This document shows positions 9,569 to 16,024 of a DNA stretch of 64,000 nucleotides, in pieces. The notes below the pieces were generated by a model that saw only the letters and a program-made list of their open reading frames with translations, did no database searches and had not been told where the DNA came from. The translations under genes and the position numbers were made by a program. The stretch is from Escherichia coli (GTDB lineage Bacteria > Pseudomonadota > Gammaproteobacteria > Enterobacterales > Enterobacteriaceae), in the NCBI RefSeq assembly GCF_003334355.1, contig NZ_QOWP01000020.1; one strand, written 5' to 3'. Every line of letters starts with the position of its first letter. Within the stretch, counting starts at the first letter, position 1.

Positions 9569-12169
9569 ATGAGCACAAAACCACTCTTCCTGTTACGGAA
9601 AGCGAAAAAATCATCCGGTGAACCTGACGTCGTCCTGTGGGCAAGCAACGATTTTGAATCGACCTGTGCCACTCTGGACTACCTGATCGTTAAGTCAGGT
9701 AAAAAACTGAGCAGCTATTTTAAAGCTGTTGCCACGAATTTTCCTGTCGTTAATGACCTGCCCGCTGAAGGTGAGATCGATTTTACCTGGAGTGAACGCT
9801 ATCAACTCAGCAAAGACTCCATGACATGGGAACTAAAACCGGGAGCAGCACCAGACAACGCTCACTATCAAGGCAATACCAACGTCAACGGCGAAGACAT
9901 GACTGAGATTGAGGAGAATATGCTACTCCCAATTTCTGGCCAGGAACTGCCCATTCGTTGGCTTGCTCAACACGGCAGCGAAAAACCGGTAACGCACGTT
10001 TCACGCGACGGACTCCAGGCATTACACATTGCTCTGGCTGAAGAACTACCGGCTGTTACTGCCCTGGCTGTTTCCCACAAAACCAGCCTGCTCGACCCGC
10101 TGGAAATTCGCGAACTCCACAAACTGGTTCGTGACACTGACAAAGTTTTCCCTAATCCTGGTAATTCAAACCTGGGACTGATAACTGCTTTTTTCGAAGC
10201 ATACCTGAACGCTGACTACACCGATCGAGGACTGCTGACAAAAGAGTGGATGAAGGGTAATCGTGTTTCACACATCACTCGCACGGCTTCCGGTGCTAAT
10301 GCTGGCGGCGGAAACCTCACCGATCGCGGCGAAGGTTTCGTACACGATCTGACGTCACTGGCGCGCGACGTAGCCACTGGCGTACTGGCCCGTTCAATGG
10401 ATCTGGACATCTATAACCTTCATCCGGCACACGCTAAACGCATTGAGGAAATTATCGCTGAAAATAAACCGCCCTTTTCTGTTTTCCGCGACAAATTCAT
10501 CACCATGCCTGGCGGGCTGGATTATTCCCGCGCCATCGTGGTTGCGTCCGTAAAAGAAGCACCAATTGGGATCGAGGTCATCCCCGCGCACGTCACTGAA
10601 TATCTGAACAAAGTACTGACTGAAACCGATCATGCCAACCCTGATCCGGAAATCGTGGATATTGCCTGCGGTCGCTCCTCTGCCCCGATGCCGCAGCGAG
10701 TAACAGAAGAAGGAAAACAGGATGATGAAGAAAAACCGCAACCATCTGGAACAACGGCAGTTGAACAGGGAGAGGCTGAAACAATGGAACCGGACGCAAC
10801 TGAACATCATCAGGACACGCAGCCGCTGGATGCTCAGTCACAGGTAAATTCTGTTGATGCGAAATATCAGGAACTGCGGGCAGAACTCCATGAAGCCCGG
10901 AAAAACATTCCATCAAAAAATCCTGTCGATGACGATAAATTGCTTGCTGCATCACGTGGTGAATTTGTTGACGGAATTAGCGACCCGAACGATCCGAAAT
11001 GGGTAAAGGGGATCCAGACTCGCGATTGTGTGTACCAGAACCAGCCAGAAACGGAAAAAACCAGCCCAGATATGAATCAACCTGAGCCAGTAGTGCAACA
11101 GGAACCGGAAATAGCCTGCAATGCCTGCGGCCAGACTGGCGGGGATAACTGCCCTGACTGTGGTGCGGTGATGGGCGACGCAACATACCAGGAAACATTC
11201 GATGAAGAGAGTCAGGTTGAAGCTAAGGAAAATGATCCGGAGGAAATGGAAGGCGCTGAACATCCGCACAATGAGAATGCTGGCAGCGATCCGCATCGCG
11301 ATTGCAGTGATGAAACTGGCGAAGTCGCAGATCCCGTAATCGTAGAAGACATAGAGCCAGGTATTTATTACGGAATTTCGAATGAGAATTACCACGCGGG
11401 TCCCGGTATCAGTAAGTCTCAGCTCGATGACATTGCTGATACTCCGGCACTATATTTGTGGCGTAAAAATGCCCCCGTGGACACCACAAAGACAAAAACG
11501 CTCGATTTAGGAACTGCTTTCCACTGCCGGGTACTTGAACCGGAAGAATTCAGTAACCGCTTTATCGTAGCACCTGAATTTAACCGCCGTACAAACGCCG
11601 GAAAAGAAGAAGAGAAAGCGTTTCTGATGGAATGCGCAAGCACAGGAAAAACGGTTATCACTGCGGAAGAAGGCCGGGAAATTGAACTCATGTATCAAAG
11701 CGTTATGGCTTTGCCGCTGGGGCAATGGCTTGTTGAAAGCGCCGGACACGCTGAATCATCAATTTACTGGGAAGATCCTGAAACAGGAATTTTGTGTCGG
11801 TGCCGTCCGGACAAAATTATCCCTGAATTTCACTGGATCATGGACGTGAAAACTACGGCGGATATTCAACGATTCAAAACCGCTTATTACGACTACCGCT
11901 ATCACGTTCAGGATGCATTCTACAGTGACGGTTATGAAGCACAGTTTGGAGTGCAGCCAACTTTCGTTTTTCTGGTTGCCAGCACAACTATTGAATGCGG
12001 ACGTTATCCGGTTGAAATTTTCATGATGGGCGAAGAAGCAAAACTGGCAGGTCAACAGGAATATCACCGCAATCTGCGAACCCTGTCTGACTGCCTGAAT
12101 ACCGATGAATGGCCAGCTATTAAGACATTATCACTGCCCCGCTGGGCTAAGGAATATGCAAATGACTAA
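9569..12169 (+). CDS. recE: Exodeoxyribonuclease VIII (RecE)
   Basis: 866-aa ORF, same length as K-12 RecE; C-terminal region overlaps the recT start by 8 bp. Confidence 0.9.
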
Positions 12170-12971
12170 GCAACCACCAATCGCAAAAGCCGATCTGCAA
12201 AAAACTCAGGGAAACCGTGCACCAGCAGCAGTTAAAAATAGCGACGTGATTAGTTTTATTAACCAGCCATCAATGAAAGAGCAACTGGCAGCAGCTCTTC
12301 CACGCCATATGACGGCTGAACGTATGATCCGTATCGCCACCACAGAAATTCGTAAAGTTCCGGCGTTAGGAAACTGTGACACTATGAGTTTTGTCAGTGC
12401 GATCGTACAGTGTTCACAGCTCGGACTTGAGCCAGGTAGCGCCCTCGGTCATGCATATTTACTGCCTTTTGGTAATAAAAACGAAAAGAGCGGTAAAAAG
12501 AACGTTCAGCTAATCATTGGCTATCGCGGCATGATTGATCTGGCTCGCCGTTCTGGTCAAATCGCCAGCCTGTCAGCCCGTGTTGTCCGTGAAGGTGACG
12601 AGTTTAGCTTCGAATTTGGCCTTGATGAAAAGTTAATACACCGCCCGGGAGAAAACGAAGATGCCCCGGTTACCCACGTCTATGCTGTCGCAAGACTGAA
12701 AGACGGAGGTACTCAGTTTGAAGTTATGACGCGCAAACAGATTGAGCTGGTGCGCAGCCTGAGTAAAGCTGGTAATAACGGGCCGTGGGTAACTCACTGG
12801 GAAGAAATGGCAAAGAAAACGGCTATTCGTCGCCTGTTCAAATATCTGCCCGTATCAATTGAGATCCAGCGTGCAGTATCAATGGATGAAAAGGAACCAC
12901 TGACAATCGATCCTGCAGATTCCTCTGTATTAACCGGGGAATACAGTGTAATCGATAATTCAGAGGAATAA
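12162..12971 (+). CDS. recT: RecT single-strand annealing protein
   Basis: 269-aa product from [13 protein letters not shown]; start overlaps the recE stop. Confidence 0.9.
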
Positions 12972-13027
12972 TTCAGCCTGGCGGTGTAATGCACCGCCAA
13001 CTTGAAATATTTTTTATGAGAAAAATT

Positions 13028-13222
13028 ATGAGATATGACAATGTTAAACCATGTCCATTTTGTGGTTGTCCATCAGTAACGGTGAAAGCCATTTCAGGAT
13101 ATTACCGAGCGAAGTGTAACGGATGCGAATCCCGAACCGGTTATGGTGGAAGTGAAAAAGAAGCACTCGAAAGATGGAATAAACGAACCACTGGAAATAA
13201 TAATGGAGGTGTTCATGTATAA
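13028..13222 (+). CDS. ralR: RalR (Lar), restriction alleviation protein and type I TA toxin
   Basis: 64-aa product MRYDNVKPCPFCGC... from an internal ATG of the track ORF. Confidence 0.8.
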   Translation: MRYDNVKPCPFCGCPSVTVKAISGYYRAKCNGCESRTGYGGSEKEALERWNKRTTGNNNGGVHV

Positions 13223-13424
13223 AATTACCGCCACTATTGAAAAGGAAGGTGGCACTCCTACTAACTGGACAAGATATTCAAAATCTAAACTAACGAAATC
13301 AGAATGCGAAAAAATGCTCTCAGGTAAAAAAGAAGCAGGCGTTTCCAGAGAGCAGAAAGTAAAACTGATAAATTTTAATTGCGAGAAACTTCAGTCCTCG
13401 AGAATTGCATTGTATTCAAATTAA
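13215..13424 (+). CDS. ydaC: YdaC
   Basis: 69-aa product MYKITATIEKEGG... with a GGAGG RBS; overlaps the ralR stop. Confidence 0.75.
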   Translation: MYKITATIEKEGGTPTNWTRYSKSKLTKSECEKMLSGKKEAGVSREQKVKLINFNCEKLQSSRIALYSN

Positions 13425-13502
13425 AACTTCATAGCTGATTATTAATAATCAACATCGGGCGTCAATTTCAGTCTAACATTGGCGCCTGCCAGAGGTGATG
13501 CG

Positions 13503-13718
13503 ATGGCACAAGTAATCTTTAATGAAGAGTGGATGGTTGAATACGGCCTGATGCTTCGCACTGGTCTGGGGGCCAGACAAATTGAAGCATACCGCCAGAA
13601 CTGTTGGGTGGAGGGCTTCCACTTCAAACGAGTATCTCCTTTAGGTAAGCCAGACAGCAAACGAGGGATTATCTGGTACAACTATCCAAAGATAAATCAG
13701 TTTATCAAAGACTCATGA
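13503..13718 (+). CDS. xisR: Rac excisionase XisR (YdaQ)
   Basis: 71-aa product [10 protein letters not shown]... immediately upstream of intR. Confidence 0.7.
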
Positions 13719-13719
13719 T

Positions 13720-14955
13720 ATGTCTAAATTACCAACAGGTGTCGAGATTAGAGGTAGATACATTCGCATCTGGTTCATGTTTCGAGGAAAACGATGTCGG
13801 GAAACATTAAAAGGCTGGGAGATTACAAACAGTAATATTAAAAAGGCCGGAAATTTAAGAGCGCTGATAGTTCATGAAATAAACTCCGGTGAATTTGAGT
13901 ATTTAAGACGTTTTCCCCAGTCCAGCACTGGGGCAAAAATGGTGACAACGAGAGTCATAAAAACGTTCGGAGAGCTTTGTGATATCTGGACAAAAATTAA
14001 AGAGACAGAGTTAACAACAAACACAATGAAGAAAACGAAATCACAATTAAAAACACTCAGAATAATAATTTGTGAAAGTACCCCGATATCACATATTCGT
14101 TATAGCGATATCTTAAACTACCGGAATGAACTGCTGCATGGAGAAACGCTTTACCTGGATAATCCAAGATCCAACAAAAAAGGAAGAACCGTGCGCACAG
14201 TTGATAACTATATCGCCCTGCTCTGTTCGCTGTTGCGTTTTGCGTATCAGTCGGGATTTATATCAACCAAACCATTTGAAGGAGTAAAAAAATTACAGCG
14301 AAACAGAATAAAGCCTGATCCGTTATCTAAAACAGAATTCAATGCATTAATGGAAAGTGAAAAAGGACAGAGCCAGAACTTGTGGAAATTTGCCGTTTAC
14401 TCAGGACTTCGTCACGGGGAACTGGCAGCTCTGGCGTGGGAGGATGTGGATCTCGAAAAGGGAATAGTGAATGTCAGAAGAAACCTGACGATACTTGATA
14501 TGTTCGGTCCCCCAAAAACAAATGCCGGGATCCGAACAGTAACACTACTGCAGCCTGCTCTTGAAGCACTGAAGGAGCAATACAAACTGACCGGGCATCA
14601 TCGCAAAAGCGAAATCACCTTTTATCATCGGGAGTACGGCAGAACCGAAAAGCAAAAACTGCATTTTGTTTTCATGCCCAGGGTGTGTAACGGAAAACAA
14701 AAACCTTATTACTCGGTAAGCAGTTTGGGGGCAAGGTGGAATGCAGCAGTAAAACGTGCTGGTATTCGCCGCCGTAATCCGTACCATACGCGGCATACTT
14801 TTGCCTGCTGGCTGTTGACGGCAGGAGCGAACCCGGCATTTATAGCCAGCCAAATGGGGCATGAAACTGCGCAGATGGTGTATGAAATTTACGGTATGTG
14901 GATTGATGACATGAACGACGAACAGATAGCCATGTTGAATGCGCGGTTATCGTAG
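13720..14955 (+). CDS. intR: Rac prophage tyrosine integrase IntR
   Basis: 411-aa ORF with the tyrosine recombinase C-terminal region (RHTFA...); adjacent to ttcA as in K-12. Ends with TAG. Confidence 0.9.
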   Translation: MSKLPTGVEIRGRYIRIWFMFRGKRCRETLKGWEITNSNIKKAGNLRALIVHEINSGEFEYLRRFPQSSTGAKMVTTRVIKTFGELCDIWTKIKETELTTNTMKKTKSQLKTLRIIICESTPISHIRYSDILNYRNELLHGETLYLDNPRSNKKGRTVRTVDNYIALLCSLLRFAYQSGFISTKPFEGVKKLQRNRIKPDPLSKTEFNALMESEKGQSQNLWKFAVYSGLRHGELAALAWEDVDLEKGIVNVRRNLTILDMFGPPKTNAGIRTVTLLQPALEALKEQYKLTGHHRKSEITFYHREYGRTEKQKLHFVFMPRVCNGKQKPYYSVSSLGARWNAAVKRAGIRRRNPYHTRHTFACWLLTAGANPAFIASQMGHETAQMVYEIYGMWIDDMNDEQIAMLNARLS

Positions 14956-15006
14956 TTGCAAAGTTTGCCCCCAATTTGCCCCATTTAGTACCAGAGAACT
15001 GAAATA

Positions 15007-15942
15007 ATGCAAGAAAATCAACAAATTACAAAGAAAGAACAATACAACCTGAACAAATTACAAAAACGTCTGCGTCGTAACGTGGGCGAAGCCATTGCTG
15101 ACTTCAATATGATTGAAGAAGGCGATCGCATCATGGTTTGCCTCTCCGGGGGTAAAGACAGCTATACCATGCTGGAGATTCTGCGCAATTTGCAGCAAAG
15201 CGCGCCAATCAATTTTTCGCTGGTGGCTGTTAACCTCGATCAAAAGCAACCGGGCTTCCCGGAACACGTTCTGCCCGAGTATCTTGAAAAGCTGGGCGTT
15301 GAGTACAAGATTGTTGAAGAGAATACTTACGGTATCGTGAAAGAGAAGATTCCAGAGGGCAAAACCACTTGCTCACTGTGTTCTCGCCTTCGTCGCGGTA
15401 TCCTTTATCGTACCGCAACGGAACTGGGGGCGACGAAGATCGCGTTGGGTCACCATCGTGACGATATCCTGCAAACGTTGTTCTTAAATATGTTCTACGG
15501 CGGTAAGATGAAAGGTATGCCTCCGAAACTGATGAGCGATGATGGCAAACATATCGTTATTCGTCCGCTGGCCTACTGCCGCGAGAAAGATATTCAGCGA
15601 TTTGCCGATGCAAAAGCGTTCCCGATTATTCCGTGCAACCTGTGCGGTTCACAGCCTAACCTGCAACGTCAGGTGATTGCTGACATGTTGCGTGACTGGG
15701 ATAAACGTTATCCAGGGCGTATCGAGACGATGTTCAGCGCGATGCAGAATGTGGTGCCGTCGCATCTGTGCGATACCAACCTGTTCGATTTCAAAGGCAT
15801 CACCCACGGTTCTGAAGTGGTTAACGGGGGTGATCTGGCGTTTGATCGCGAAGAGATCCCACTACAACCGGCGGGCTGGCAGCCAGAAGAAGATGAAAAT
15901 CAGTTGGATGAGTTACGGCTGAATGTGGTTGAAGTGAAATAA
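15007..15942 (+). CDS. ttcA: tRNA 2-thiocytidine(32) synthetase TtcA
   Basis: 311 aa; SGGKDS PP-loop motif and paired CxxC motifs. Confidence 0.9.
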
Positions 15943-15950
15943 CCAGGATA

Positions 15951-16024
15951 GCGCCCGATGCGCAAGCGTATCGGGCTACTCTTATGGAGGCCGGATAAGA
16001 CGCGGCCAGCGTCGCATCCGGCAA
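15951..16024. repeat. REP (repetitive extragenic palindrome) elements between ttcA and dbpA
   Basis: GCGCCCGATGCGCAAGCGTATCGGGC and GGCCGGATAAGACGCGGCCAGCGTCGCATCCGGC palindromic units. Confidence 0.6.

Follow-up and report, generated by a model that had tools for sequence, protein, structure and literature searches.

The ralR/ralA locus of the Rac prophage in an Escherichia coli contig, with the antisense RNA RalA placed inside rcbA

The stretch of Escherichia coli DNA analysed here (64,000 nucleotides of contig NZ_QOWP01000020.1, hereafter the window) very probably carries the known ralR/ralA locus of the Rac prophage, in which RalA is a 179-nt minus-strand RNA that runs from 13399 to about 13221, antisense inside rcbA (ydaC). 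An Rfam scan of positions 11000-16000 returned a single strong match, to RF02694 (RalA), at 13221-13399 on the minus strand, with its 5' end at 13399 and its 3' end at 13221. This match covers positions 1-179 of the 179 in the model and scores 225.1 bits against a gathering threshold of 170 (E 8.5e-55). The K-12 RefSeq ncRNA ralA (b4714) is annotated at the equivalent place, inside rcbA and on the opposite strand; the genomic position in the window is likewise that of the family, antisense within rcbA/ydaC and directly downstream of ralR in Rac. A SAM_alpha match at 12505-12578, inside recT, was dismissed as chance (16.8 bits against 36, E 2.5). The original prediction, made from the letters of the sequence, held that a RalA gene should lie near ralR and must overlap coding sequence. 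Both statements were borne out: the alignment with RalA that it proposed as a check found a homologue beside ralR rather than none, and the RNA lies within rcbA/ydaC and two nucleotides of the ralR stop codon. The same prediction spoke of an antisense RalA RNA at the ralR locus and flagged the interval 12972-13230. An antisense RNA does exist, but as annotated it is antisense to rcbA and not to ralR, with which it shares only those 2 nt in the stop codon. Furthermore, the interval 12972-13230 comprises ralR, the recT-ralR spacer and only the last 10 nt of RalA, whereas the RNA gene falls almost wholly outside it.

The surrounding segment has the gene order recE-recT-ralR-rcbA(ydaC)-xisR-intR and represents the end of the cryptic lambdoid prophage Rac that lies nearest the integrase gene. 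According to the list of open reading frames, all on the plus strand, recE occupies 9569-12169, recT ends at 12971, xisR occupies 13503-13718 and intR 13720-14955. Between them lie ralR (lar), at 13028-13222, and rcbA (ydaC), at 13215-13424, a gene for a 69-aa DUF1187 protein whose antisense strand encodes RalA. The earlier coordinates of ralR and its 8-bp overlap with ydaC agree with the reading frames and the sequence, the overlap being ATGTATAA at 13215-13222. In an alignment, positions 12900-13500 agreed with E. coli K-12 MG1655 at all bases (100% identity); the MG1655 record runs in the reverse orientation to the window strand. The mutant numbering of Guo et al. (PMC4041452) also fits the window exactly: RalA T63/G64 correspond to 13337/13336; G81 and G83 to 13319 and 13317; C161, which is ralR-frame position 212, to 13239, the first base of ydaC codon 9; and T189 to 13216, the T of the ydaC start codon. 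In sequence, gene order and gene overlap, this is the same element as RalR/RalA of the K-12 Rac prophage (b4714, RF02694, PMC4041452), and the RalA of the window is an already annotated, ordinary Rac feature identical to the K-12 copy. Many complete E. coli genomes contain this 1 kb at 100% identity, and it is found in some form in 1934 of 5426. Counted separately, ralR is present in 1905/5426 and the RalA region in 1920/5426 of these genomes, so the two co-occur nearly always. RefSeq records other than that of MG1655 list only rcbA or a 'DUF1187 family protein' here and hold no ncRNA feature; RalA is therefore unannotated in almost all carrier genomes.

The 64-aa product of ralR, which begins MRYDNVKPCPFCG, is a zinc-ribbon protein of the Lar type. 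It scored 166 bits against NCBIfam NF007260, the RalR equivalog (cutoff 113), 55.3 bits against TIGR03655 (cutoff 39.6) and E 3.3e-14 against Pfam PF14354 (Lar_restr_allev), and it was also assigned to phrog_599. These profile matches, above the curated cutoff, place RalR in the Lar family (PF14354/TIGR03655). Thus, by sequence it is a member of the Lar restriction-alleviation proteins (PF14354, TIGR03655, phrog_599). However, the family takes its name from the relief of type I restriction, whereas RalR, the proposed toxin of the pair, has been reported instead as a non-specific DNase (Guo et al. 2014, PMC4041452). Two in-frame ATGs upstream, at 12989 and 13016, were rejected as start codons in favor of 13028, because all homologues start with MRY at that position, a beginning conserved among them.

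The spacer between recT and ralR contains a hairpin (12972-13006, plus strand) followed by AUAUUUUUU, the whole extending over 12972-13015 and ending 13 nt before the ralR start codon. On folding, this hairpin reached -18.8 kcal/mol (z -5.6), and 0 of 200 shuffled sequences were as stable; a simple terminator scan missed it at 12972-13006. The GGCGGTG/CACCGCC stem is shared by loci with a different type of recT, where the loop differs and the tail is U-rich. This element probably either ends the recET transcript or forms a folded 5' region in the ralR mRNA.

The ends of RalA deserve separate discussion, and the earlier caution that they cannot be placed from sequence was justified: the 3' end is predicted only, and the 5' end has been mapped only on a plasmid construct. 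The 5' end, GAGGACUGAAGU, comes from primer extension (Guo et al. 2014, PMC4041452). For that experiment, RNA was taken only from a rac-deleted strain carrying pCA24N-ralR-ralA (PMC4041452), because native expression was too low. The insert of this plasmid ends at the ydaC stop codon, so that only 25 nt of native upstream sequence was present in the primer extension. Small RNA (exRNA) reads starting GAGGACTGAAGT provide independent support for the 5' end (PMC7967276), and the accumulation of RalA was reported to be very low (PMC7967276). Upstream of the mapped 5' end, a candidate -10 box, TACAAT (13409-13414, minus strand), proposed from sequence, stands 9 nt away and reads TATAAT in some alleles. 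No recognisable -35 element accompanies it, and a consensus scan called no promoter at 13399. The best sigma-70-like site of the region in the consensus scan is the predicted TTGACG-16-AATAAT (13438-13465, minus strand; 10/12 matches), which points into rcbA antisense; transcripts from it would begin near 13431, some 30 nt before the annotated 5' end of RalA. This site is outside the plasmid insert used for primer extension, and one set of alleles that are otherwise close has unrelated sequence in its place. Consensus scans of the diverged loci L004, L009 and L249 gave no antisense promoter, which constitutes weak negative evidence only.

At the other end, the 3' terminus was predicted from a hairpin (5-bp stem, 14-nt loop, four U) and was never mapped (PMC4041452). 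A contemporary review stated that end mapping was not reported and raised interaction via overlapping 3' ends as possible (PMC4147584). The predicted terminator hairpin corresponds to RalA nt 146-171 (13229-13254, minus strand), followed by GGUAAUUUU up to 13221. Its folding energy was -7.4 kcal/mol (z -1.5) with the 14-nt loop, 13 of 200 shuffles being as stable; in the L071 type, a common natural allele, only -1.4 kcal/mol is left and the hairpin is lost. At 13229-13254 the terminator scan made no call. The predicted terminator of RalA is weak and not conserved. Additionally, those Term-seq supplements of Adams et al. 2021 that were examined have no entry for ralA, rcbA, ralR or ydaC, and a literature search for RalA together with RIL-seq found nothing.

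Given these positions, the published mechanism can be laid on the window. RalA would pair in trans with the ralR mRNA, its nt 63-78 (UGCUUCUUUUUUACCU, 13322-13337, minus strand) meeting codons 41-46 of ralR (GSEKEA; AAGUGAAAAAGAAGCA, 13150-13165, plus strand) (PMC4041452). Acting with Hfq, it would lower the RalR protein with little change in mRNA, which would make the two genes a type I toxin-antitoxin pair (PMC4041452). The pairing derives from the 16-nt repeat described by Guo et al., which reads AAGTGAAAAAGAAGCA in ralR (13150-13165) and AGGTAAAAAAGAAGCA in the sense strand of rcbA (13322-13337). Read along the duplex, it consists of one Watson-Crick pair, one mismatch, two further Watson-Crick pairs, one G-U pair and a run of 11 contiguous Watson-Crick pairs, which gives 14 Watson-Crick pairs in total and 15/16 when the G-U pair is included. 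Several published experiments bear on this site. Point mutations in this part of RalA reduce its antitoxin activity, and altering four bases removes that activity altogether (Guo et al. 2014, PMC4041452); compensatory changes in ralR (M1/M1) bring it back (PMC4041452). When supplied by itself from pBAD, RalA neutralises in trans a clone that carries ralR only (PMC4041452), and ydaC start-codon and early-stop mutants still neutralise RalR (PMC4041452). The function of RalA is reported to require Hfq (PMC4041452), and on its induction RalR protein is lower and ralR mRNA little changed (PMC4041452).

The native locus may also have a cis-antisense component. The scan detected no terminator-like site between ralR and rcbA or just after them; together with the 8-bp overlap, this suggests that the two genes are probably co-transcribed, and in that case all 179 nt of RalA would match the rcbA portion of the shared transcript as a perfect complement. 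In its full form, this reading treats RalA as a cis-antisense RNA in effect. Either the ralR mRNA would continue through rcbA and form the 179-nt duplex, or RalA would read through its weak terminator into ralR; control would lie with a long overlapping duplex, as in type I systems with 3' overlap, and the 16-nt trans site would be secondary. The overlap of the ralR stop with the rcbA start and the lack of a terminator-like site agree with it, as does the weak and unconserved terminator of RalA; moreover, most published mutant tests used a construct with ralR and ydaC on one transcript (PMC4041452). Nevertheless, we regard this reading as unlikely. In the two-plasmid test, neutralisation still occurred although the ralR-only clone and RalA have nothing in common beyond the 16-nt site and 2 nt; the little-changed ralR mRNA on RalA induction speaks against it as well; and the fragments obtained by strand-specific qRT-PCR were reported to be consistent with 179 nt (PMC4041452).

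The complementarity of the antitoxin RNA to the toxin mRNA that characterises type I systems is thus present in the window, although its statistics are only marginal. When the codons of both genes were shuffled, the 11-nt match had a P of 0.02-0.03, and under the codon-shuffled null the 15-of-16 measure had a P of 0.31; overall, the 16-nt pairing is only marginally beyond chance (P about 0.02). These values come from exact-repeat and window counts against codon-shuffled nulls, which replaced whole-length RNAduplex runs of RalA-like RNAs against lar mRNAs that had produced meaningless end-to-end duplexes. Across natural variants, the 16-nt match is kept in the K-12-like clade. In the homologous register of more diverged loci, the contiguous Watson-Crick run shrinks to 8 nt in L099 and L010, 6 nt in L104 and 3 nt in the L009 type, and is essentially absent in the L004/L005 types. 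RalR is 80% identical in the L009 type and 74% in the L004 type. In these same diverged modules (L009, L004/L005, L104, L099 and L010), the best complementarity between lar and ydaC anywhere was at chance level, with the reading frames intact. Maintenance of pairing in homologous loci, which is not a formal requirement for a type I system, was therefore not seen outside the K-12-like clade, and the trans pairing seems to be of recent evolutionary origin and restricted to that clade.

Such a distribution bears on a second reading, which we hold to be less likely than not. Here the conserved, selected product of 13215-13424 would be the RcbA/YdaC protein, and RalA a low-level, evolutionarily young by-product that is relevant mainly under over-expression; the locus would then be a two-gene phage module of Lar plus DUF1187 and not an ancient type I pair. 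The 16-nt match would have arisen by chance in the K-12-like clade, because the RalA and ralR sites both encode Lys-Glu-Ala with the same common codons. The chance-level pairing in the L009, L004, L104, L099 and L010 types and the very low reported level of RalA fit this account. However, in allele L105 an identical A-to-T substitution at the two sites leaves the 11 contiguous pairs in place, which is a point against it.

RcbA/YdaC matches Pfam PF06688 (DUF1187) with E 1.3e-38, as well as NF007283 and phrog_5753, and the profile match combined with protein-coding evolution identifies it as a DUF1187 protein. YdaC homologues at 59-67% identity keep an open reading frame of 59-64 codons. Over the first 53 codons, comparison of the window with distant homologues gave a pS of 0.69-0.84, which is saturated, a pN of 0.21-0.24 and a pN/pS of 0.27-0.35; this ratio was lowest in the ydaC frame, and only that frame and its antisense shadow frame were free of stops. 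Among close relatives, the pN/pS of ydaC was 0.06. At 21 of 110 distinct loci, no Lar homologue was present within 330 nt upstream of the DUF1187 gene; these loci include a whole 59-aa clade, and others are preceded by a Dam-type methylase or an unrelated reading frame. A scan of viral contigs that began with the K-12-type protein retrieved near-identical loci only, and diverged queries were needed to recover the others. The intact frames, the low pN/pS and the Lar-less loci all favor the by-product account and indicate, from comparative data, that purifying selection acts on rcbA as a conserved protein gene, which often occurs without a ralR/Lar gene. Since rcbA is a genuine coding gene, the RalA gene is embedded antisense within it and does not replace it. 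The AlphaFold model of YdaC, built from 17 sequences, predicts a beta-beta-alpha-beta fold with a mean pLDDT of 76, and this folded product likewise counts in favor of the by-product account. A fold search of this model against the PDB gave no significant match, the best being the phage p56 Ung inhibitor at E 0.74, and thus no function was inferred for YdaC from its fold.

Several further observations concern the DUF1187 genes. In the window and in K-12, rcbA codon 63 (13401-13403) is AGA, giving a protein of 69 aa; in most other loci it is TGA, so that the protein has 62 aa, the length class to which distant homologues belong. Counted from the mapped RalA start, the base that varies (13401) is at -2, and the candidate -10 box at 13409-13414 falls past the stop codon of the common 62-aa allele. 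Frameshifted or prematurely stopped copies of ydaC occur in several E. coli and prophage contigs (L281-L286, P0072, P0075, P0077 and P0081), so the gene also decays in some lineages; some fusion reading frames join the C-terminus of RalR to YdaC. DUF1187 genes without an upstream Lar gene were found at loci L006/L007, L002 and L248-L265. At L006, the end of a Dam-type (MethyltransfD12) methylase gene and the DUF1187 start codon share bases, and downstream comes a conserved 138-aa reading frame. This pattern suggests that DUF1187 genes form part of a variable anti-restriction or DNA-modification region close to the integrase end of lambdoid prophages.

At the RNA level, the predicted fold of RalA was no more stable than that of shuffled sequences (z -0.26), and the consensus structure of Rfam RF02694 is the minimum free energy fold of the K-12 sequence. 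Among 59 distinct sequences, we counted 10 compensatory pairs, compared with 10.2 in shuffles and 7-14 in slid controls, and the structure is therefore not one supported by covariation. In this alignment 80% of cells pair, mainly because most rows are close to K-12. Distant homologues scored 24-38 bits on the RalA model against its gathering threshold of 170, with many broken pairs. Additionally, pS among close relatives was 0.168 in the RalA region, 0.201 in ralR, 0.114 in intR and 0.080 in xisR; synonymous divergence is thus not lowered in the RalA region, and no additional constraint at the RNA level is seen. The low scores of distant homologues and the missing covariation are again in keeping with RalA as a by-product. 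Nonetheless, the genetic data from K-12 weigh on the other side, since neutralisation persists when the ydaC start codon is mutated or an early stop is introduced, pBAD-expressed RalA neutralises in trans, and mutations in the 16-nt segment abolish an effect that matching ralR changes restore (PMC4041452). Moreover, a protein role and an RNA role for the same DNA are not mutually exclusive.

A combined reading joins elements of these accounts, and we put it forward only as a possibility that is rather less favored than not. According to it, rcbA would be selected with or without Lar, RalA would be a young antisense RNA of the K-12-like clade, and its main native duplex partner would be the ralR-rcbA co-transcript. 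The 16-nt trans interaction of type I would then be a recent or over-expression-dependent overlay and not the cause of the conservation of the locus. Set beside this, our principal conclusion remains the identification of the known ralR/ralA locus with RalA antisense inside rcbA.

Comparison with other type I systems shows how RalA resembles and departs from them. As with TisB/IstR-1, ShoB/OhsC and ZorO/OrzO, the antitoxin RNA gene adjoins the toxin gene and the pairing is short, the complementarity being 18-21 nt in those systems versus 16 nt in RalA (PMC4041452). However, their antitoxins are divergent intergenic genes, whereas RalA is antisense inside another protein gene; they target the 5' UTR, whereas RalA targets the middle of the coding region; and they are Hfq-independent, whereas RalA is reported to be Hfq-dependent. 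Their toxins are small membrane proteins, in contrast to the soluble zinc-ribbon protein RalR. A different likeness is seen with yonT/SR6, BsrG/SR4 and TxpA/RatA of Bacillus prophages, in which the antitoxin RNA also converges from downstream of the toxin gene. SR6 is described as overlapping a second downstream gene too, as RalA does (PMC5848175). Nevertheless, these Bacillus antitoxins overlap the toxin mRNA extensively and act via the duplex, while the annotated overlap of RalA with ralR is 2 nt.

Because the element is the textbook K-12 copy, the finding has little wider significance, although it settles a small annotation gap: RalA can be placed to the base (13221-13399, minus strand) and its pairing sites can be marked. 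The comparative results call for caution when type I systems are modelled on RalR/RalA or when RF02694 is treated as a structural family. The RNA lies over a protein gene under purifying selection, its fold and terminator are without evolutionary support, its 3' end is predicted only, and its pairing is not conserved outside the K-12-like clade. These caveats, of modest interest to those who study type I systems, restrict generalisation of the model and leave the K-12 genetics standing.
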